Positions 13,654-64,000 of a DNA stretch of 64,000 bases are shown piece by piece; position 1 is the stretch's first letter, and each line of letters opens with the position of its first letter. The translations under genes and the position numbers were made by a program. Source of the DNA: a virus. The stretch is from positions 1 to 64,000 of the IMG/VR virus record IMGVR_UViG_3300043427_003273; one strand, written 5' to 3'. The notes under the pieces were generated by a model. That model worked only from the letters and a program-made list of their open reading frames with translations, was not told the DNA's origin and searched no databases.

Positions 13654-13857
13654 TTATTTATTTTTTAAATTTTTTACCCAACTCTTATAATTGTTAGGAA
13701 CTTTACGAAAATCAATATTTCCTTTTTTTTTATTTCTGAATCCTAACAAAGGATCAAACCCAGCAGTTGGTCCTTGTGCTGGAGATGATCCAGTAAAACC
13801 TCCAGCACCAACAACCATATTTTCTTTTATTATTTGTATAATCTTTTCTAGTGTCAT
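13654..13857 (-). CDS. small hypothetical late protein
   Basis: IKENM..GAGGFTG...GPTAGFDP; ATGA coupling with the upstream gene. Confidence 0.7.
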   Translation of the reverse strand: MTLEKIIQIIKENMVVGAGGFTGSSPAQGPTAGFDPLLGFRNKKKGNIDFRKVPNNYKSWVKNLKNK

Positions 13858-14234
13858 TGATCTGCTAGTTCCTTTAATTGTCGCATACATTCAAAATCAA
13901 TAGGAATATTATGAATGTAACATTTTGGAGTTGGTGGAAGTCTATTGAGAAATACAATGATTGTTTTCATTGCTGGCCAAAGAACCTCTTCAACTTTATA
14001 AAATAACATTGGAGTTGTAGCTTCTCCAAAAATATTATAAAGAACAATAAAATGGTTGATGAGTAGATTGCATTTCAATTCACCATCTTTTTTATATCTT
14101 TTTAAAAGACGTTTTATATATTTAAAATGATTCAAATCTTTATAAAAATCCTCTTCAGTAACTGCCTGAGGATTTTCATAATTTTTTATCGCAAACAGTA
14201 AAAAATTGCTTTCATCTAACTCATCAAATAACAT
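13854..14234 (-). CDS. conserved T4-like hypothetical protein
   Basis: FLLFAIKNYENP...DLNHFKYIKRLL...LLINHFIVLYNIFG. Confidence 0.85.
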   Translation of the reverse strand: MLFDELDESNFLLFAIKNYENPQAVTEEDFYKDLNHFKYIKRLLKRYKKDGELKCNLLINHFIVLYNIFGEATTPMLFYKVEEVLWPAMKTIIVFLNRLPPTPKCYIHNIPIDFECMRQLKELADQ

Positions 14235-14890: not shown

Positions 14891-15082
14891 TCAGTCGTTT
14901 GGTGTTGGGTCGTTTCCACCTTTGTCTTTGAGGAAATCTTTACCTTTCAACAATAAGAATGAAAGAATTCCATTTGCCTTTATAGCTGGAACAGCACCAA
15001 GAAATTCTGAAAGGATCAGAAGAATCGTTGCTACGGCAGCTTCATTTGCCATTACCCAAGCCCAGATTGCAGCTACTGACAT
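14891..15082 (-). CDS. small membrane protein, possibly holin-like
   Basis: Hydrophobic helices, LSEFLG..P.IKANGI, charged C-terminus, AGGAGG RBS, late box upstream. Confidence 0.6.
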   Translation of the reverse strand: MSVAAIWAWVMANEAAVATILLILSEFLGAVPAIKANGILSFLLLKGKDFLKDKGGNDPTPND

Positions 15083-15132
15083 AATTTACCTCCTAAGATT
15101 TAAGTCATTACAACCAACTTTATTTATCAAAA

Positions 15133-15269
15133 TTAATCGTTAAGAGGGATACCCGCATTTAACTGCTTTAACTTTGCTTGCAATTGGCTTTTTTGAATGG
15201 ATACAAGTTTTTTCTTAGTAGGATCTACTTTTTGAGGTTTAATTTGCGGAGGACTTAAAGTTTTTTTTT
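15133..15269 (-). other. putative -1 frameshift or slippage site (A9) and 42-aa extension frame
   Basis: GAT AAA AAA AAA CTT TAA; the -1 frame is open to TAA at 15133 and closed just upstream by TGA TAA. Confidence 0.55.
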
Positions 15270-17612
15270 ATCACTTTCAACTTCTTCATTTTTTGCCTTC
15301 CAAGCAGTAGCATAAGCAATAGATTTTTCCTTTTGCGTCAATCCACCTTTTTTAGCATATCCCTTTTTGATATGCTTAACCATTCTTTCAAACTTTGCAC
15401 CTGGAGGTGCTTTTTCTTCAAGATCAACTTCCTCTTTATATCCCTTTGCCTTTTCTACTCCCTTTGCAGGAACGCAATTTGGAACTTCACGACCACCTTT
15501 TTTCTTCATTCCAACTTGAGTGTATCCTTTCCAGCAGGGGTCTTCTTCAGCAAGAAACATTTCCTCCACCATAAAGTTCGATTCAAATACTAAGAAAATA
15601 GCATTTTCATCGAGTTCAACTTCTTCAAGTAATGCTTCCATCCACTCTTCAAATTCTTCCCTCTTATATGCCCTTGGACTTGATGCTGCACTTCCTCCTT
15701 TTGCCCATGCCTTATCGGTTTCTGCATTTCCAGACCATGGATCTCTTTCCGTTGTGTTTGGCTTTTTAATTGGAGTAGATGGTTTCTTTCTTTGTGGAGT
15801 ATAGGGTGAATCTCCCGACTTCCCACTTGCCATTGCAGCACGATGGGCATCCATTCTTTGCTTAGCAAGTTGCTGCCTTTCGGAAGGTTTGGGAGTAAGG
15901 AGTCCTCTTAAAGCACTTCCAATTCCTTCATTAAGATCTTCTGGAAGATAAGTATCAATTAAATACTCTTCAGAATATTCATTTACATCATAACCTTCAG
16001 AAATTAATTCATTAATCCAAAGATCATAATCTTCTCTCATTTTCTTAATAAATGTTCCTGCAGCACGACCCGCTGCCTGAGCATTTGTCTTTCCAGCAAC
16101 TTTAGCACCAAGACCTGCTCCTGCTGCTCCTGCTGCCGCAACTGCAGTTTTAGCAACTCCTTTTTTTAACTTTTGTCCTGCCTCACTTTTACCAAACTCC
16201 TGTCCAGCACGATGAACTGCCTTTGCAGCACCCACAGCAGCACCAGCAGCAGTTCCAGCAGCTCTTGCAACTCTTCTTTCATGCTCCTTCCCAACTTCCC
16301 TTGCAGTTTGCCATGACTGCTTTAAATGTCCAATAATACCCTTCTTAACTTCTTTCTTAGTTCCTTCGGAGGACTTATTGGATGCTGGTGCTTGTGATGA
16401 TTTTGCGTTTTCAATACTTTTTTCAGTTTTTGCTTTTTTCAATCCAGAAGAAACCTTTGCTTTCTCAGATTGACTCTTAAGTGCTGCAGTCATTCCAGAT
16501 GGTTTTTCGGAAGATGCAGATGCTTCTGCTTCTCTTCTTTTTTCCTTTTCACCACGAAGACGCTTAATTGCTGCAGTTTTTGCACCACCTTTTAATGATC
16601 CAACATCCTTTCCAGATTTTGTAGTTGGTTCAATACGTCCACTTCTTCTTGCTTCATCAAGATCAAGAATATAATCAACAAACTCATCTACACCAATATC
16701 TTCGATAAGAATATTGATTCCATTTTCATTCAAACCTTCAGCATAAAAATATTCTGTTGCAAAGTCAGCAACTTCTTCAATATAATTTTCACCAAGATCT
16801 ACAGATTCTACAAGTTCTGCACCAAGAACGTGTGCAATTTCTTCTGTCTTAATTTCTGGATTTACAGTTACTTTATTATTAACAGTTTTTTCCTTAATTT
16901 GCTTTTCTTTTTCCTTTATAGCATTCATTTTATCAGTAACTTCACGAATTTCTTCTCTCCATGAAGAGAATGATTCTTTTTTAGTTCCCCTTTTTGACAT
17001 TGCCTTTTTAACTGCATTGTCCTTGACTCCAGCATACTCATGACCATCTGGTTCTACAGTGCCATCCTTATCCTTATCACCTACAGTATTCTTTCCAGTT
17101 GCTGGACCATACTTCTTCTCATACTTTTCACCAGCACCATCATAAGGACTTCCGTGCTTAGTAACTGTCGTCACTATTCCTTTTTGCTGTAAACCATGTC
17201 TTTTTTTACGATCCTTTTCACTGCTTGGATCAAATTTTTTAACGTATGGTTTTTCTCCTGTTTTTCTACTTCTTGGATCAACTCTCAAATAATGCTTACC
17301 TGCTTCTGCTTCTTCCTTCACAGGTCCACCAGAAGCACCAAGACCCAATTTTTCTCTGACTGCTGCCTTCTCATTGGCAGGCATAGAAGTATGGGACATA
17401 TATTGAGAATATGCCTGATCTACACCAATTTCTTCTCTTCTTGCACGATATCTAATATCATAAACAGCCTGCCTAATTCTTTTAGCAGATTGATCTCCCA
17501 ATGCTGGTGCTCCACCTTTTGCTTCACCACCACCATCTTCTTTTTTTCCTAATTGAGGTTCCATCTCAGTGAGATAGGACTCATAAAGATCTTTTGCGAT
17601 ATGGGATAACAT
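15255..17612 (-). CDS. large modular late protein, putative internal head polyprotein
   Basis: Alternating basic modules and acidic linkers; DPCWKGYTQVGMKKKGGREVPNCVP module; TATAAATA upstream. Confidence 0.8.
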   Translation of the reverse strand: MLSHIAKDLYESYLTEMEPQLGKKEDGGGEAKGGAPALGDQSAKRIRQAVYDIRYRARREEIGVDQAYSQYMSHTSMPANEKAAVREKLGLGASGGPVKEEAEAGKHYLRVDPRSRKTGEKPYVKKFDPSSEKDRKKRHGLQQKGIVTTVTKHGSPYDGAGEKYEKKYGPATGKNTVGDKDKDGTVEPDGHEYAGVKDNAVKKAMSKRGTKKESFSSWREEIREVTDKMNAIKEKEKQIKEKTVNNKVTVNPEIKTEEIAHVLGAELVESVDLGENYIEEVADFATEYFYAEGLNENGINILIEDIGVDEFVDYILDLDEARRSGRIEPTTKSGKDVGSLKGGAKTAAIKRLRGEKEKRREAEASASSEKPSGMTAALKSQSEKAKVSSGLKKAKTEKSIENAKSSQAPASNKSSEGTKKEVKKGIIGHLKQSWQTAREVGKEHERRVARAAGTAAGAAVGAAKAVHRAGQEFGKSEAGQKLKKGVAKTAVAAAGAAGAGLGAKVAGKTNAQAAGRAAGTFIKKMREDYDLWINELISEGYDVNEYSEEYLIDTYLPEDLNEGIGSALRGLLTPKPSERQQLAKQRMDAHRAAMASGKSGDSPYTPQRKKPSTPIKKPNTTERDPWSGNAETDKAWAKGGSAASSPRAYKREEFEEWMEALLEEVELDENAIFLVFESNFMVEEMFLAEEDPCWKGYTQVGMKKKGGREVPNCVPAKGVEKAKGYKEEVDLEEKAPPGAKFERMVKHIKKGYAKKGGLTQKEKSIAYATAWKAKNEEVESDKKKL

Positions 17613-17659: not shown

Positions 17660-18997
17660 TTAATAAATTTCTCTCCATCTTATGGATACTCCAACGTTGG
17701 CAACGTCCGTTCCAAGATTTGTTACACGAACTGAAAAAATTTCAGAATCGGTAGAATCGTAATTTTGAGATAAGAAATTTTTCTTTGAAGAAGGTCCACT
17801 TGATACATCTACAGATGTTGCCGTTGGTTTTTGAGAATTTTGACTTTCTCCTGCAGCATATCCACCCATAAAATCTTCAAAATACGTCAAACTGATTCCA
17901 GTTGCACTTTCATTAAATTCAACAACAGATTCCGTATTCTCAGAAACCCAAGTGCCAGTTGAATTGATGCCAACGGAACTTCTCAATTTTACAACTTCAT
18001 ATTTTACATTAGACCCACTACTGAATACAGAAACATCTTCAAGTTTTACAGTTGCTCTATTTGGGTATCCTTTGAATGAATTTTTAAGTCGAATCGCAAT
18101 AATGGGAATTGCAGATCCAATTCCAACGTTTCGTAAGTTTGTTGTATGGGAAAATTCTCTACCTGCCTCTGTATATCCACCTTCACTCATTACAGTGGAA
18201 CAAATTTGAATGAAAGATCCACCAATACCTATTTGTGTTCCTACATTTCTGACCTCACATCTTACTGGGAGGTTAGGATTAGACATATAAACTGTTGGGA
18301 GGTGATTTGCATTATAAAATTCATGAGCAAGAATATTATAACCATCAATAGCAAATCCACAACGAACTCTACCTACACCCAACCACTCAAAGTCGGTCAT
18401 GAATAATTGAGTTTTGGTGATGTCTAAATTAAATCTTGATGGACCATTTCCGTCTAATGTATCCTTATTCCATTGAGATTGCGGAACTCTTCTCTCTGAT
18501 GCAATACCAGACACATTAGATCTAATTACAAAACTCAAAGTTCCATCTGGTGCTTGCTCAAAGAAAATTCCATCTCTATCATCAAAATATCCAGTTCTCT
18601 TATAAACGTTTTGCTGTACTGCACCAAAGTTAATAGTGGAATAAATTACCTGTGATTTTCCAGGCATGTAGTGATGATATCTCTTTGTCTGGTGAATGCA
18701 GTAACCATTAGTACTAATACCAGAATTTAAAATTGCTGCAGCTTGGTTGACATCAAAAATAACAGTTGCTCCAGTACCAACCTTAACATCTATAAAATCT
18801 GGGTCAATAGCATAAAGGTGCTTATAATCCCCAAGAGTATAGGGTTGCGATGTTCTTAATCTACCAAAAGAATCCGCAGAAAATCCTTGACCAAGATCTT
18901 CATAGATTTCTCCATACTTATTAGCCCTCATATAAACTTCAAAGAGGGATCTTTCTTGATTCAAATAATCTTGTTGGTTTTTATTCCAAATTCCCAT
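17660..18997 (-). CDS. virion structural protein
   Basis: DSFGRLRTSQP, YMPGKSQ, DFEWLGVGRVRCGF; beta-rich. Confidence 0.75.
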   Translation of the reverse strand: MGIWNKNQQDYLNQERSLFEVYMRANKYGEIYEDLGQGFSADSFGRLRTSQPYTLGDYKHLYAIDPDFIDVKVGTGATVIFDVNQAAAILNSGISTNGYCIHQTKRYHHYMPGKSQVIYSTINFGAVQQNVYKRTGYFDDRDGIFFEQAPDGTLSFVIRSNVSGIASERRVPQSQWNKDTLDGNGPSRFNLDITKTQLFMTDFEWLGVGRVRCGFAIDGYNILAHEFYNANHLPTVYMSNPNLPVRCEVRNVGTQIGIGGSFIQICSTVMSEGGYTEAGREFSHTTNLRNVGIGSAIPIIAIRLKNSFKGYPNRATVKLEDVSVFSSGSNVKYEVVKLRSSVGINSTGTWVSENTESVVEFNESATGISLTYFEDFMGGYAAGESQNSQKPTATSVDVSSGPSSKKNFLSQNYDSTDSEIFSVRVTNLGTDVANVGVSIRWREIY

Positions 18998-56123: not shown

Positions 56124-59100
56124 TTAAATTGATGGTTTAAGTGTTGCAATTCCTCTCAAATCTTTTATTAAAGGTGGTTGAGCTTGATTCTTGGAGGCCA
56201 AAATAATTTTTATAGCAAATCCAGTGAATTCTGAAAGATTATCTACAGTATATTCATAATCACTGTATTCAAGTCCAACAGAAAATGTATCCTCAGAATC
56301 GGCAGATCCATCATTCTTCGATGCATCTATTACTCTTTTTATTCCAGAAGAATCTACTTCATAATTTGAGAATCCTGGGAATGGTTCAAAATTTGGATTT
56401 CCAAATGGCGCATCTTTCCTGAAAAGTTTATATAAAACTCTAATATCATTATCTTGATTTCTAGATGCTTTTAAGAATACTTTGAGAGAATTTGCAGGAA
56501 GTTTTAAAGTTATTGGCTTTGTAATATAAACTGCTTCATGGAGGTCATCACCACCTCTAATATATTCAACATCACCGAATGTAGAATCTTTTCCAACTCC
56601 CGCAGGTGCATTAATGAGATTTGAGGTTAGTATTACACTAGTTGTAACATCATCAATTACTGGAGATACTCTACTATCTTCTGTTGTTAAAGTAATTTCC
56701 ATAGAAAGACTTCTATTTCCAGGAACATCACTAATATTTCTTTCTTCATTTACAGTAGAAGCAACTAATCTAGGAGTTGGGAAAGATATTGGTTGATCAA
56801 GTGAAATATCAACATATCCTTGATCTTCAAATGAAGATTCATTTCCATCAATACTTGTTGCACTAAATGTACGAACCTTTGCACTTATATTTGTTCTTGC
56901 AAGTTTAATAGTGGCAAAATTTGGTGTCAAAATTTCATATTGAACATTTGTAGAAACAATTGGACCAGAATCTCCAAGTATAGATGTGCTATTAAAAATA
57001 ACATCATTTCCAATATTTGAACCTATTGTTGTATTTGGATCTACATTATTGTCAGTATCACCTGGTGGAATTTTAATATAGAATGAATTTAAAGATATTG
57101 GATGAGTGTTCGTATCAATTGATGCTAAATTATGTACTTTATTAATTCTTCTTAAAGAGACTCCATTAAATTCATACCTGTAAACTGGAACGCCAACATT
57201 ATACGACTGGGATTCTGTTCCATCAACTTTTCTTATCACAGTTTGAGAACCTCCTCCCAAAGAAGTTCCTGTATAAGTTGTATATCCAACTATTTCATTT
57301 CCAATAATTACATAACCAGGATTTATATTAGTAACTGGAGTGCCTTCAAAGGTTTCAAATCCACTAGTATTCCCAATATTGATTAAAGTAGTCTCAGTAG
57401 ATGATACGGATTCTGCCAATAAACTATTTGGCTCATCTTCTTCTGGTCTAATGTTGCTAATTCTTACATAATTTTGAGTTGAATGCATTCCATGATTTAC
57501 AACATTGAGTAGTAAATGCTGACCATCGTAGATTGGGTTTTGATCTACAATTTCAACGATTGATTCTGATTCCGTTACATAAGTACCGATCCCACTTTGT
57601 GGTATATAGTAAATAGGCAATGAGTTAAACAAGGTTCCACTTAAAGAACCAGGACTTTTAACAATATTATCTAATATTAAAGTGTTTCTAATTGAAATTG
57701 AATTTACAGTAAATTCCCCACCAAATCCAACATCAGTTCCTATTGATGGAATAGTCAATTGATCTCCAGATTGATATCCATATCCACCACTAGTTATATT
57801 TGCATAAGAAATAACACCATTATTTACAGTAATATCGGCAAAAGCACCTTTTCCAGATCCAGTTACAGATATCAAAGATACATTGTTAAATGTATATGTT
57901 CCAGATGTTGGAGTATATCCTATTCCTGGATTTGAAACAGTAATTCCAATGCCAGATGCTATACTTCCCCCAATTCCAATTAATTTTGAAGTAGATTGTC
58001 CTTGTTGATATATTGTAACTCCTGGTAAGACATCTGGTTTGAAATTTTCAGTACCTTGAACTTTTACTACTGCCCTTTTTGATAAGCATGTTATTTGATT
58101 TTCACCCAAAACAGTAACTTTATTATTTTTCAAAGAAAGTTTAGGATTGTAATATCTAACAACGCCGCTATTAACAAAATCTGCCCTATAAAGTTTATAC
58201 TTTAAATCTTCTAATTGAGATGGAGTCCAAGTCGTTCCATTTTGAGATTTAAACAAACTCCCCAGAGTTGGCTGAGATCCTATTTTTATATTGGTTAAAA
58301 TGTCATTTTCACCAAGTCTTGAAATAAACACTCTATAATTGGAACTATTCGACTGCAAAACTACAGAATATTCATTGCTCACTTCACTTGCAATAGGAGC
58401 TCCTCTAACTTCTTGAGCCTGTGGACCAGAAAGATATACTGGAGATGCAAATCTAAATCTTGTTGGTAAAGTCCCATCAATTGATGTATTAATTTCTGAA
58501 GGATCCAGAGTAACTTCTGAGAAAGGTAAAACGGTATTTGTAGGAGTTCCATTTTCCATTGTACGAATCTGTAAAGTTACTGGAATAGACTCGTCAATAG
58601 TTTCAAAATAAACATCAACACCCGTTAAGAATATTCCAGTTTCGTCTTTAACATAAAACGACTGTGCCAATGGATCTCTAACTTCCCATCTAGTTGTCAA
58701 TCTATCTTCTCTTCCCTGAATTCTTGTATTAGTAATTGCAGTTGTATTCGTTGTTGTATTTGTTATAGTTGTTGTGTTGACATTTCTAGATGGTCTAATA
58801 ATTATATTTCTTGTTGTTAAAATATTTCTTTGCGTCACATTCGTAGTAGAAGAAGAAGTAAAATCTTCTTCCGCAGAACTTTCATTTGTAACGTTCTGAT
58901 CTCCAGACGAAAGTTCGGAAAGTGATGGAGTATCAATGATTGTAAATGTATTTTCTCCATTAATCCACTGTGGATTTCCAGTAACCTTTGAATCTGGAAT
59001 ATACAATGATCCGATTAATCTTCCAGTATTATCAGAAACTAATCTTGAATTTGTAATTCTTGCAACTGCTCCAGAAGTTTTCCCAATGATTCTCATATTA

Positions 59101-62100
59101 ATAGCAATTTCACCATAAAAATCAACTTCGGATGATAATTGCAAAGATCTTGTATCAACATTAATATAATCAGATGCTTCAGTATAATTTTCTGGTGGAG
59201 CACTTTGTCTATATGGAATTAATTTAAATGTTTCTGTTGGATTTGCAAAGGGACCAGTTTTATGGTTTGGATTACATGCTCTAAATCTAATCTTTTTAGA
59301 TGTGAAGTGAGGATCACTTTCTATTGTTTCTCCAATTTGGAATTTTCCAGAAATCATTTCTATTTCAAGAAGTTTTGGAATAATATACTTATTAACATCA
59401 ATTCCTTCAAAGAATGAATAAAATCTTGTTCTTGGTCGCAATCCTTTAACATCAAATTCAATATTTCTACTTCTTAAAAATCTAGTTGGCTCGGTGAAGT
59501 TTGAAATATTTTCTTCAACAGTTGTTTCTTCTCTAATTTCTGGTGGTATAGTAGTTCTTACAGTGTTACTTTCAGAAACTACCGATGTAGTTATGGATTC
59601 AGTAACTCTCGTAATGTCTGGAGATCCTGGAGCATAGTTGAGGAAAATAGCTTGATTTGGTGTTCTTTGACGAATTTGAGTTATATAAGAATCCGCAACA
59701 TCCCTGGGAAGAATTCTAGAGAGCCAATTTATGTCAGCTTCTGTAATTCCCCACTTATAAGCTCTAAATTGTACAGCTTGCCTACCATTAACATTTACGA
59801 CAGTTGTGGAAAGACCTCTTGTGTTATATCTGAAAGATTCTACCCAATTAGCGTTTCTCCAATTGCGATTTCCTCTGGCCCATCCAGCTCTTCTCCAAAA
59901 ACTCCCATTAGAAGTAATCCATCTTCTTCTCCAAATACCTCTTTGTGTAACAACTTCGTTTCTAAAAACAACCTGATTTCTAATTACATTACGAGTAACT
60001 GATACATTGATATCTGGTTCTTGGGGTAAATTTGTAGTTCTTGTGTTAAAACTTTGATTTACAATTTCTCTTTCTTCAATCCAAGTATCACTTGGGGGGT
60101 TAAGTTGTATAGAACCAGACCAATACTTGACCAAAAATGGAGTTACACTTTCAGTTCTAGTAGCATAAGGTTGATTGAAATATTCAAGATCTTGATAATT
60201 TAATGTTATTAAATCTCCAGTTTTTCTTATCCCGTCAGATCCAAGATCTGACACATAATCATGATCCTTTGTTGGATCAAATGTTTCTCCAACTCCAGAA
60301 ATAACCTCAGATCCCAACTGCATATCGAGTGAAGTTGTATAATGAGTTGGTCTTAAAACATTTAATTGATCATCGATAGATACTTTATAATCTGGATCTT
60401 CTTCATTATGTAAATTTGTATTTTTGAATGTATCCACAAAAAATCCGCACTTAAACCGCTCCAATCCAGTATCTGCATCTTTTATACTTAAATTTTCGGT
60501 TTTAGTTTCTAATGTTGTTAATATAGTAAATTCTTCTAATCTTTTAATTCTATCTTCAAGAAGAGAAATATCTTGCATGGTATATTTTCTGTGCCTCTCA
60601 ACACTCACTTCAATGTTTTGAACATTAAAAACATATGGAGGAAGATTTACTTTAGCAATTTCTAATGAATTGTCTGGAACATCTGGCTCAATAGGACGTA
60701 TTCCAGGTGTGCCTTGAATAATTGAAAAAGTTCCGTCAGAATTCAGTACAACTTTATCAATTCTTCCAACGTAGTATTTGTAGCAAACTTGAATATTTTC
60801 TCCTGGAGCTAAAATATATTTTGAATATTGTCCATCTGCAGACAACTCTCTAGATGAAAATTCAAATGGTGATTTATGAGATGAAAGATTATATTTAGAT
60901 ACTCTTGGTCTTAAATCCAAATAATCACTAACTCTATTATCATTATAAATTGGTATATCATGCTTAAAGTTATTTTCGGAATAACTATTAGCAGTAAAAA
61001 TTTCTCCAGTGTCTGATGAATCTACGGAATAATGTTGGAAAACAACCTTTAATGATTTTTTAGGCTCCTCAACATTTTTCTTTCTAATCAATTTTCCATA
61101 ATTATAATATGATGATGTTTGTCCATTATCAAGATCAAAATTTTGAGTAATATTTCTATCTCCCAAAGATATTGAATTGATATTAGTTCTTAATGAAGAT
61201 TCTTTTGCTATTAAAACCTCACCATTTTCAAATGTTTTAGAATTTAAATAAACAAATTCCAAAACATTCGTGTCAACTTTACTGACCAATAAGGCAGCAG
61301 CTCCACTTGTTTCTCCTATGAGATTTTCTCCAACAATATAGCTCTGTGCATTAGATCCAGTAATTTGAAGACTTGGTAAAGTAGCATCATTTTCGTTACT
61401 AGATTCAAATACACCTATTACTCTAACAACATCTGGAATATTCAAACATATTTCTTTATCTTGTATTCTAGTTCCATAAATTAAACTATATGTTAAACCA
61501 TCATTAAATGTTGTTTGACCTATTCCAGCATATGGATATTTTGATCTCTTAATGTTTAAAACTTCTGCTTTATTGAATTTTTTAATTTTTGAATTTAATG
61601 TAGTATTAGTGATAGTGGCAATAACATCAGCAGATCCAATTGTCTGAGATAGATCAACAAATGTTGCTGTTTTACCAGAAGAATCTATGCTAAATTTATC
61701 AAATCTAATTGATTCTTTATTTCCATTTGAATATGTTATAACATACCTATCTTCATCAAATTCAGCAAAGAAAAGATCTTCTTCCGATGGACTAATAGTA
61801 ATTGAAAGTTGATTTCCACTTACTGGAACATTTTTAAATAATCTTCTTTGAGTTATTAAATTGTTTTCAATGTTTATTGACGAAATATTAATGTTACTTA
61901 ATTTTGTTAGTAAAGATTCACTATCTGGAGAACCATAAATTGATGCAGAAACTTTTTGAATATTAGTAACTTGATCATCTGAATTGGTAGTATTAACACC
62001 ACCAGAAATATAATTTGTTACAGTGGCTATTCCAGTTACAGTAAATGATTTTCCTTCTGGATCAATTGTTAAAACTTTATTGTAAGTTGGAATTTGAGTT

Positions 62101-64000
62101 CCATCTAAACCTTCTGGAGCTCTAGTATAATTCCAAAGAATTATATCATTTTCCTTTAGATTTTCAGTTATTCTTCCGAATGATATTGAAGATATTGTTG
62201 ATATTCCATTGTATGCCGCACTTACAGTAAAAAGAGTTCCAGATGGAGCTAAAGATGCTTTTTTATCTAGTATTAAATCTGCATTAAAAGTTGAAATTCC
62301 AGAATTTGAGTAAACAGATTTTACATCATTAAGATCATATTCTATTACATTTTTAATTACTCTTCCTTGTTCTATTCCATTAATTATAACTCTTTCGTTT
62401 TTTAAGAATTTTCCATTAACTTCATATAATCTTATTGTTGAAATTCCAACCAATCCAGAATCCAATTTTGTCCAAACTGCAGATGTTGGTCCAGAATAAT
62501 AGTTTTCTGCAGTTACTCCAGATAGAGTAAAAACATTTTGATTTATGATAGTATCAACAGTAAAATTGCCATTGTAATTTGAATTACTTGAATTTTCAAT
62601 ATAAATGTCTTCCCCTCCAACTAATCCATGATTAGTTGCATTAATTCTTGCAATTTCAGTACTTTCCGTAAAATTTCCAAATCCAGAAGGATTGTCAAAT
62701 AAATCCGATGGCTGATCTCCACCAATCCCTTCATTAATGTCAATTACAATTCCTTGTCCAGCATCTGCTAAAGCTGTAGTTCCCAATCCAACTACTGGAA
62801 TAACTACATTACTTACCGATAAAACCGTAAATTTTCCTGCAGTTTGATAGTCTAGCTGTTCTTCACCAGTTCCATTAATATAAATTTTTTCTCCAGGACT
62901 CAAATTATGATTTGTTGGGGTAGTTATTGTTGCTATTCCAATTGGAGAGAAAAAGGCACTTTCTATTCCAACTGTATTAAATGTTGCCGAAGTTATATCT
63001 ACTAATGGTGAAAAATCTAAAGCATGTGCAGTTGCTCCAGATTTTGCGCCTTGAAAATGTGAGGGTTTAAATACTGGTATAGATTTTTCAAAATTTAGAA
63101 CCGTGTATGTTTGAATATCAAACAATCTAAGATGCATTCTACTTAAATTATCTTTATATTCACTCTCTGGAACATAATCATAAACTCTTGCAACTCCAAT
63201 TGTAGTTCCAGAAGCAACTGACCTATTTAAACCAAGTCTATCTGTCATTAAACTTATAACTGCATCTGTTCCCAATCCTACAGATGGAGATCCAAAAGTA
63301 TTATTGAGAACAAATAATGTGCCAGCATTATAAGAAATTACTTCTTTTTTGCAAGTATCTGAAGTTCTTGGTTTTGGAGCATCTAAAAGTCTTGCTGATA
63401 TGGTTTCTACAGTGTATCCACCAATGTATGCTTTTCCTGGTCCAATTTGATAAACTATTTTGTCTTCGGATGGAGTATTTCCAGATACAGTTGTTTGATT
63501 GCTAAAATAAACACCGTTATTCAAAATGCCATCATTAAGACTATCCCTCACATAAACAGTAAATGGCTTTACAAAAAAGTCACCACTTACATCAGCAATA
63601 ACTTTAGCGGATTCAGTCTTTGCCGCAAGAACTGGCTTTATTTCAGAAATATTTGTTCTGGGAAATTGAGGAATTCCATCAACTACTCTCATTATTTCCA
63701 CAAATCCATCAATTTCAATATCATCCAATTCTTTTTTTGCAAGAATTAATTCCAATTTAAGTCGGTCTGCCCCAGGTGCTGTATAATTGGTAAAACTTCT
63801 TGCATTGTCAAATAAAGAATCATCTTCATCTGATGTAACTATTCTTTCTATAATATCAAACCCAATTTTATATGAAGGATTTGTATTATATTGCTCAAGG
63901 ACTAAAGATTGTCCCAATATGTTTGCAAATATGCCCCTAACAAAACATACTCCATCAGAAATAGATACTGAAGATGCCTTTGAATTGCAATTTATTGAAA
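56124..64000 (-). CDS. giant virion structural protein (DUF4815/VrlC-like), 5' end outside window
   Basis: APGADRLK, RFKCGFFVD.F, DPLAQSF, SLFKSQNG.TW; frame stays open to the window edge. Confidence 0.85.
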   Translation of the reverse strand, partial: SINCNSKASSVSISDGVCFVRGIFANILGQSLVLEQYNTNPSYKIGFDIIERIVTSDEDDSLFDNARSFTNYTAPGADRLKLELILAKKELDDIEIDGFVEIMRVVDGIPQFPRTNISEIKPVLAAKTESAKVIADVSGDFFVKPFTVYVRDSLNDGILNNGVYFSNQTTVSGNTPSEDKIVYQIGPGKAYIGGYTVETISARLLDAPKPRTSDTCKKEVISYNAGTLFVLNNTFGSPSVGLGTDAVISLMTDRLGLNRSVASGTTIGVARVYDYVPESEYKDNLSRMHLRLFDIQTYTVLNFEKSIPVFKPSHFQGAKSGATAHALDFSPLVDITSATFNTVGIESAFFSPIGIATITTPTNHNLSPGEKIYINGTGEEQLDYQTAGKFTVLSVSNVVIPVVGLGTTALADAGQGIVIDINEGIGGDQPSDLFDNPSGFGNFTESTEIARINATNHGLVGGEDIYIENSSNSNYNGNFTVDTIINQNVFTLSGVTAENYYSGPTSAVWTKLDSGLVGISTIRLYEVNGKFLKNERVIINGIEQGRVIKNVIEYDLNDVKSVYSNSGISTFNADLILDKKASLAPSGTLFTVSAAYNGISTISSISFGRITENLKENDIILWNYTRAPEGLDGTQIPTYNKVLTIDPEGKSFTVTGIATVTNYISGGVNTTNSDDQVTNIQKVSASIYGSPDSESLLTKLSNINISSINIENNLITQRRLFKNVPVSGNQLSITISPSEEDLFFAEFDEDRYVITYSNGNKESIRFDKFSIDSSGKTATFVDLSQTIGSADVIATITNTTLNSKIKKFNKAEVLNIKRSKYPYAGIGQTTFNDGLTYSLIYGTRIQDKEICLNIPDVVRVIGVFESSNENDATLPSLQITGSNAQSYIVGENLIGETSGAAALLVSKVDTNVLEFVYLNSKTFENGEVLIAKESSLRTNINSISLGDRNITQNFDLDNGQTSSYYNYGKLIRKKNVEEPKKSLKVVFQHYSVDSSDTGEIFTANSYSENNFKHDIPIYNDNRVSDYLDLRPRVSKYNLSSHKSPFEFSSRELSADGQYSKYILAPGENIQVCYKYYVGRIDKVVLNSDGTFSIIQGTPGIRPIEPDVPDNSLEIAKVNLPPYVFNVQNIEVSVERHRKYTMQDISLLEDRIKRLEEFTILTTLETKTENLSIKDADTGLERFKCGFFVDTFKNTNLHNEEDPDYKVSIDDQLNVLRPTHYTTSLDMQLGSEVISGVGETFDPTKDHDYVSDLGSDGIRKTGDLITLNYQDLEYFNQPYATRTESVTPFLVKYWSGSIQLNPPSDTWIEEREIVNQSFNTRTTNLPQEPDINVSVTRNVIRNQVVFRNEVVTQRGIWRRRWITSNGSFWRRAGWARGNRNWRNANWVESFRYNTRGLSTTVVNVNGRQAVQFRAYKWGITEADINWLSRILPRDVADSYITQIRQRTPNQAIFLNYAPGSPDITRVTESITTSVVSESNTVRTTIPPEIREETTVEENISNFTEPTRFLRSRNIEFDVKGLRPRTRFYSFFEGIDVNKYIIPKLLEIEMISGKFQIGETIESDPHFTSKKIRFRACNPNHKTGPFANPTETFKLIPYRQSAPPENYTEASDYINVDTRSLQLSSEVDFYGEIAINMRIIGKTSGAVARITNSRLVSDNTGRLIGSLYIPDSKVTGNPQWINGENTFTIIDTPSLSELSSGDQNVTNESSAEEDFTSSSTTNVTQRNILTTRNIIIRPSRNVNTTTITNTTTNTTAITNTRIQGREDRLTTRWEVRDPLAQSFYVKDETGIFLTGVDVYFETIDESIPVTLQIRTMENGTPTNTVLPFSEVTLDPSEINTSIDGTLPTRFRFASPVYLSGPQAQEVRGAPIASEVSNEYSVVLQSNSSNYRVFISRLGENDILTNIKIGSQPTLGSLFKSQNGTTWTPSQLEDLKYKLYRADFVNSGVVRYYNPKLSLKNNKVTVLGENQITCLSKRAVVKVQGTENFKPDVLPGVTIYQQGQSTSKLIGIGGSIASGIGITVSNPGIGYTPTSGTYTFNNVSLISVTGSGKGAFADITVNNGVISYANITSGGYGYQSGDQLTIPSIGTDVGFGGEFTVNSISIRNTLILDNIVKSPGSLSGTLFNSLPIYYIPQSGIGTYVTESESIVEIVDQNPIYDGQHLLLNVVNHGMHSTQNYVRISNIRPEEDEPNSLLAESVSSTETTLINIGNTSGFETFEGTPVTNINPGYVIIGNEIVGYTTYTGTSLGGGSQTVIRKVDGTESQSYNVGVPVYRYEFNGVSLRRINKVHNLASIDTNTHPISLNSFYIKIPPGDTDNNVDPNTTIGSNIGNDVIFNSTSILGDSGPIVSTNVQYEILTPNFATIKLARTNISAKVRTFSATSIDGNESSFEDQGYVDISLDQPISFPTPRLVASTVNEERNISDVPGNRSLSMEITLTTEDSRVSPVIDDVTTSVILTSNLINAPAGVGKDSTFGDVEYIRGGDDLHEAVYITKPITLKLPANSLKVFLKASRNQDNDIRVLYKLFRKDAPFGNPNFEPFPGFSNYEVDSSGIKRVIDASKNDGSADSEDTFSVGLEYSDYEYTVDNLSEFTGFAIKIILASKNQAQPPLIKDLRGIATLKPSI

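Follow-up and report, generated by a model that had tools for sequence, protein, structure and literature searches.

We have identified a 42-codon open frame behind the stop codon of a phage gene, opening at a run of nine adenines, that is probably real coding sequence. The gene lies in the first 64,000 nucleotides (nt; this whole stretch is referred to below as the window) of IMGVR_UViG_3300043427_003273, a 100.9-kb IMG/VR virus record from an uncultured T4-like lake phage. It encodes P0001, a cassette-like modular protein of 785 amino acids (aa) that ends ...NEEVESDKKKL-stop (15255..17612, minus strand, from the open reading frame (ORF) list and its 0-frame translation). We consider the chances about even that slippage on the nine-A run (A9) adds the 42-aa tail to a minority of the protein and that this is kept by selection. 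If so, a nine-A run alone would let a T4-like phage fix how much it makes of each of two forms of a protein that is probably virion-associated, and standard annotation would miss part of a phage protein.

Anatomy of the gene end

Read to the base on the minus strand, the 3' end of the P0001 gene is GAT AAA AAA AAA CTT TAA, exactly as the sequence-only reading had reported. The A9 homopolymer (15261..15269, minus strand) forms three AAA lysine codons, includes an in-frame A_AAA_AAA heptamer and is the proposed slippage site. The 0-frame stop, TAA (15255..15257, minus strand), stands one codon (CTT) past the run. In the -1 frame, TGA TAA (15268..15273, minus strand) overlaps the first two A's of the run; after these stops the frame starts AAA AAA ACT... 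and continues for 42 sense codons, without ATG or GTG (15136..15261, minus strand), to a TAA of its own (15133..15135, minus strand). Translation thus bore out the claim that this frame is closed just before the run, has no ATG and is open for 42 codons to 15133. Because the -1 frame is stopped before the run and the 0 frame is stopped one codon after it, a productive frame change is confined to the A9. The start-less tail has a Pro-rich stretch, one predicted helix and the end IPLND.

Four bases separate the tail-frame stop from GATAAATA (15121..15128, minus strand), a T4-type late-promoter-like box of the next gene, which has TATAAATA as its counterpart at the same place in the related record L003; AGGAGG and the ATG of the gene at 14891..15082 follow. 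The tail does therefore end just before the box, as had been noted from the sequence, but the accompanying argument that it fills the gap is weak, since the gap after the P0001 gene (172 nt) stands only at about the 88th percentile of gaps in the genome. No intrinsic terminator was found on the coding strand of this gap. A separate small gene in the tail frame was considered and rejected: ATG and GTG are absent from it, and a start at the sole TTG would give 16 aa.

Coding character of the tail

Frame-specific codon tables were trained on 56 long ORFs of the genome, and with these the codon-usage posterior of the tail frame is 0.975. Scores at least equal to that of the tail were obtained by 88% of true 42-codon coding windows, compared with 10.5% of stop-free off-frame windows. 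By our own arithmetic, about 4% of random 42-codon frames stay open at this base composition. A genome-wide comparison of -1 openness after stop codons is uninformative, because the next gene often occupies that frame. AlphaFold2, given the tail alone, predicted an extended Pro-rich start followed by one helix at residues 14-36 (pLDDT about 90). The Pro linker and the helix that had been read from the letters were in this way both predicted, but the amphipathic character ascribed to the helix was not upheld, its hydrophobic moment being no better than 26% of shuffles and not significant.

Counterparts of the tail in close relatives

Protein P0002, encoded in L003 and L008, is 923 aa long, is 91% identical to P0001 and continues in frame past ...NEEV. 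The in-frame linkers that follow ...NEEV in P0002, P0123 and P0004 begin with DP, contain KKK-LV and end G-K-LPLD, and are succeeded by longer tails. The window tail reads DP-T-KKK-LV...G-IPLND, matching these linkers in both motif order and place; by position and motif order, it is probably the counterpart of the linker/tail that these relatives keep in frame. The window and L003 were compared frame by frame across the indel, the MAFFT alignment being wrong there. Their upstream flanks are about 90% identical and their downstream flanks nearly 100%, and the tail itself is far diverged. Between EEV and DP, the window has 53 bases more than L003, which would come to 18 whole codons (54 nt) if the run were A10. 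In a Smith-Waterman comparison of the window tail against shuffles, p was 0.015, and when a profile of the relatives' tails was run on the 2718 six-frame peptides of the genome, the window tail came third.

Searches for further members gave little. No protein among 5.8 billion carries the window tail in frame, and the in-frame linker of P0002, used as a query, retrieved just its own cluster. Close relatives found by scanning metagenomes were limited to L008, which equals L003 over the stretch read, and L009; scans of genome contigs gave no match. IMG/VR was scanned with the family profile, a 30-mer covering the downstream promoter and Shine-Dalgarno (SD) sequence, the tail motif, a degenerate AYATAWKAKNEEV pattern and a pattern of A8 or longer plus CTTTAA, and none of these yielded a further close relative, the last returning unrelated genes. 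The sequence-only reading had looked to tBLASTn for homologues of the extension; this found no match at E <=10 in 50,697 phage records, but the same kind of gene end does recur in relatives.

The linker of the 923-aa relative has a homopolymer of its own, an in-frame A10 at L003:5364-5373 (= L008:2604-2613); the 91-kb record of L003 has no other A/T run of at least nine. Each of the other two frames meets a stop within two codons, and slippage there would give a tail-less form.

The A9 run in its genome and family

The identical 785-aa protein is present on four contigs. Four further distinct relatives, known here as proteins from JGI and Logan assemblies (P0003, P0005, P0122 and P0127), also end DKKKL-stop; P0003, P0005/P0122 and P0127 are 82-92% identical to P0001 overall, and their linkers before DKKKL differ in length. 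The 100.9-kb genome contains two A/T runs of at least nine, including the A9 at the gene end. The other A9 (13723-13731, minus strand) falls midway along a small ORF (13654..13890) whose frame continues through it and encodes ...FRN-KKK-GNI... there. Given the contigs with identical protein, the further DKKKL-stop relatives and the reading through of the other A9, it is very unlikely that the run arose from an assembly error.

Lysine is encoded by AAA in 70% of cases in this genome. Among 19 KKK windows in ORFs of at least 100 aa, all-AAA spelling occurs once, against 6.6 expected, and the one instance is the A9 at the gene end; in the remaining 18 it does not occur, against about 6 expected. 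This strong avoidance of all-AAA lysine triplets in long ORFs points to slippery runs being selected against in the phage.

Similar gene ends in distant relatives

An exact search of IMG/VR with the 18-mer GAT-A9-CTT-TAA found L091, in which the 18-mer is identical to that of the window and lies in the same gene neighbourhood. L091 is a distant mosaic relative that has one module in common with the window protein (E 6e-5). Its 479-aa ORF ends ...GEEVDKKKL-stop, and a 115-aa module comes next in the -1 frame (L091:12180-12544). In L099 (1477-1510) and L101 (1489-1510), a polyprotein ends with A_AAA_AAG and a stop, and the same module as in L091 follows in -1. An 8-bp hairpin lies 5 nt downstream in L101 (-17 kcal/mol, z -2.3).

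Ends of the form ...GEEV-x-KK(K)-stop precede a widespread module of roughly 90 aa (CNKPK...HGSG), which is a stand-alone gene in most of 80 loci.

Slippage as an explanation, and what weighs against it

As written in the DNA, the P0001 gene would give the tail-less 785-aa protein, and the 126 nt behind its stop would belong, as the latter part, to a C-terminal linker/tail cassette found in frame in some relatives. Host RNA polymerase would slip on the A9 and add one A in part of the late transcripts, giving an 827-aa form that reads ...DKKKK-TLSPP... at the junction. For a smaller share, unassisted -1 ribosomal slippage on A_AAA_AAA beside the stop would give an 826-aa form (...DKKK-TLSPP...), the transcriptional and ribosomal products differing by one lysine at the junction. 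Selection would keep the two forms, a major short one and a minor one with the Pro-rich stretch and one helix. We infer the slippage, the machine responsible and the selection from an anatomy, a coding-like tail and a recurrent gene end that are themselves observed.

A number of observations weigh against this reading, and we gather them here. No stimulatory fold was found past the A9: for stretches of 63-83 nt the minimum free energy is -2.8 kcal/mol with z from 0.0 to 0.6, and the whole 151-nt stretch past the run likewise shows no significant fold (z -0.37). The pseudoknot that had been proposed from CTTTAA/TTAAAG and CCGCA/TGCGG fell away, these pairs not being part of any favoured fold. 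The 30 nt upstream of the A9 contain no SD-like (GGAGG-like) element, and Rfam, RF00382 included, gave no match at E <=1 other than one chance snoRNA. The likeness of the window tail to the relatives' tails is weak by profile (E 1.4 genome-wide, and about 5e-4 for one pre-named peptide), and BLASTP gave no match. In L091, the module in -1 also possesses an ATG, within a TAATG overlap, and the marine cyanophages S-H9-1 and S-WAM2, which have the same module, continue in frame without an A-run. The cost of an A-run in the last codons of a gene is also small, and no positive selection is needed to explain one there.

The 3' ends of the close family point the same way. The end of P0008 lies in the +1 frame of the window and implies A8 at the window's site; a -1 event starting from A8 would miss the tail. 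The sister lineage carries its tail out of frame, at an A-run other than that of the window; P0125 of L009 (A9) and P0006 (A10) are identical at 833/833 residues, yet the reading frame of neither enters the tail. A third contig of this genotype, that of P0124, is identical to them over 792 residues and has lost the frame further upstream, by a deletion inside a DUF6321-like module. To us, the A9/A10 difference in the sister lineage suggests instability of the tract, or decay, more than a fixed programme. At least six types of C-terminal end occur (DKKKL, NKKKH, LKKK/LKKNS, AKNK, ...RNPRLR and ...SRFD, among P0001-P0013 and P0122-P0129), several of which stop directly after a lysine triplet, and the type of end is independent of backbone similarity. 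P0127 and P0007, for example, are 98% identical and have unlike ends; P0005 and P0123 are 94% identical, and the former ends DKKKL-stop and the latter with a long in-frame tail. As the end types do not track the backbone, 3' ends are freely exchanged between backbones as cassettes, and DKKKL-stop may be one of several complete ends.

Polymerase or ribosome

Programmed transcriptional slippage is known from Thermus dnaX, Shigella spa13/mxiE and tssM, and T4-type phages use the host core RNA polymerase. We infer that the A9 is transcribed by a slippage-prone, multi-subunit bacterial polymerase, given the TATAAATA-type late boxes and the T4-like myovirus gene set of the 100.9-kb genome (major head protein, portal, tail sheath, large terminase, gp43-type DNA polymerase, helicases and NrdA). 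Transcriptional slippage calls for an A/T run of about nine or more in a transcribed region, which the A9 provides. A dnaX-type ribosomal cassette calls for a heptamer X_XXY_YYZ in the 0 frame, which is present, and for a downstream stem-loop or pseudoknot and an SD-like element or Rfam match, which are lacking. Runs of nine A or T are efficiently slipped on by bacterial RNA polymerase, as in Thermus dnaX, and in E. coli A_AAA_AAG shifts far more readily than A_AAA_AAA (PMC5009743). Polymerase slippage is the likelier of the two, as hairpin, pseudoknot and SD-like element are missing and A_AAA_AAA is a weak ribosomal site. The earlier appeal to both A-run frameshifting and slippage accordingly survives in one half: A9 is a known slippage substrate, but dnaX-type ribosomal signals (hairpin, SD-like element, Rfam match) were not found.

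Three known systems offer comparisons. In C. rodentium tssM, an A11 run before the stop gives two required length variants (PMC4256274). In C. rodentium and Y. pseudotuberculosis tssM, as in the window, poly-A stands right before the stop of a gene for a structural machine, the DNA itself encodes the short form, and A's added in the transcript lead to a C-terminally extended form (PMC4256274). tssM differs in having A11 and a large essential domain, with both forms and their ratio shown experimentally; the window has A9 and a 42-aa tail, and is known from sequence alone. Thermus thermophilus dnaX resembles the window in its A9 and its bacterial multi-subunit polymerase, and in Thermus the result is mixed mRNAs and two protein lengths (PMC5009743). 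There, however, it is the in-frame product that is long, and slippage shortens it, the reverse of the window; the Thermus layout is closer to that of the L003 linker, where the A10 is in frame and the two other frames stop at once. The E. coli dnaX/IS3-type cassette (RF00382) shares with the window an in-frame lysine heptamer of the type X_XXY_YYZ near the end of the short ORF and a -1 extension. L099 and L101 resemble it further in their canonical A_AAA_AAG and stop, and L101 in its hairpin, whereas the window has A_AAA_AAA and lacks the hairpin, the SD-like element and the Rfam match. If real, the window case would plausibly be a new instance of a known homopolymer slippage trick that gives a C-terminally extended isoform.

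Alternative explanations

The best-surviving alternative is that DKKKL-stop is a complete and functional short end, that the 42 codons are an unerased remnant of an ancestral tail, and that any slippage is noise without function. We regard this as doubtful, though a serious possibility. It would account for the lability of the family's 3' ends, with at least six end types that do not follow backbone identity; for the frameshifting deletion of P0124 in the preceding module and the difference of P0006 and P0125 in tract length alone; and for the long ...SRFD or ...RLR tails that have clearly been lost in several lineages. A nearly cost-free A9 in the last codons and a gap of unremarkable size also fit. 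A dead remnant fits less well with the truncated state being common to backbones 82-92% identical and with no in-frame version existing among the 5.8 billion proteins, from which the shift appears to be old. A single change would turn about 22 of the 42 tail codons into stops, yet this has happened in none, and the codon usage of the tail is still gene-like. Dead DNA is, moreover, usually deleted from dense phage genomes.

The sister lineage also bears on this point. Its out-of-frame tail (L009:2651-2738) is open and shares LVKQGKLPLD with L003, ten identical residues retained across four synonymous codon changes; it ends two codons past PLD, much like the window tail. Neutral decay over the divergence seen between the window and L003 tails would rarely leave an open, coding-like frame. 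A tail that has diverged and yet is open and coding-like, a truncation found across several backbones and the lack of an in-frame version together favour continued expression of the tail over a long-dead relic. Were the tail a relic nonetheless, the locus would still record fast reshuffling and homopolymer breakage of these gene ends.

Slippage might instead occur in replication, with A9 changing to A10 or A8 in part of the population and the tail being switched on and off at the DNA level, in the manner of a contingency locus. Differences of this kind are on record in the family, namely A9 in P0125 against A10 in P0006 with all 833 residues identical, the A8 implied by P0008 at the window's site, and the in-frame A10 of L003, where the other two frames close within two codons. 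We nevertheless judge heritable switching improbable, because no collection holds an in-frame allele of the window tail, the four contigs have the same 785-aa product, and the differences in tract length could be assembly noise.

An assembly or sequencing error, with a true tract of A10 and one continuous ORF of 827 aa, is very improbable. Homopolymers are the classical site of indel errors, and with A10 the 54 nt that the window would have in excess of L003 make exactly 18 codons; against this stand the four contigs with an identical protein, the four DKKKL-stop relatives from JGI and Logan assemblies, the other A9 of the genome, which is read through in frame, and the lack of an in-frame version in any collection. 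That the 42 codons are ordinary spacer holding the next gene's promoter, with one frame free of stops by luck, is just as improbable, since the odds of about 4% per frame, a gap at the 88th percentile only and the lack of significant BLAST similarity are countered by gene-like codon usage in exactly the tail frame, by motifs collinear with the relatives' tails at the same position, and by a frame whose opening coincides exactly with the run and whose end coincides exactly with the promoter.

Slippage that adds the tail to a minority of P0001 is the reading we prefer, and it could be part of something wider. In freshwater T4-like phages, long A-tracts might serve as terminal linkers throughout a family of cassette polyproteins, placed where the last fixed module gives way to an optional tail or further module, moved by recombination between backbones, and tuning how much of a virion protein bears the extra piece through slippage and heritable A8/A9/A10 change. 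We offer this broader scheme as speculation and think it unlikely.

Gene product, locus and further observations

P0001 and its last 131 aa have no Pfam match, and its PHROG matches are to families of unknown function only. At this locus, matches to virion-protein families belong to the neighbouring genes and not to P0001, and the label of internal head protein that the gene had been given is not supported; from the neighbouring genes, P0001 is probably a virion-associated protein. The module matching its last module is annotated as DUF6321 in other records (tblastn homologues H28 and H29), and precomputed PF19846 (DUF6321) assignments are found on many P0001 homologues, although P0001 itself has no Pfam match.

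The upstream neighbour (17660..18997) matches phrog_1645, a virion structural protein. The next gene (14891..15082, minus strand) encodes a hydrophobic 63-aa protein, has AGGAGG upstream, marks the end of the unit and is conserved in L001 and L003. The order of genes is the phrog_1645 gene, the P0001 gene, the 63-aa hydrophobic protein and a 204-aa protein. It is the same in relatives and, among cultured cyanophages, in S-H9-1 and S-WAM2, where a 'structural protein' follows.

In L009, a ten-bp hairpin (2679-2702) starts 19 nt past the A-run, and the 71-nt stretch there folds with -18.2 kcal/mol (z -4.0); by this predicted fold, it might stimulate frameshifting or be akin to a terminator. Elsewhere in the window, an ORF of 2597 aa is present on the minus strand at 56124..63917.

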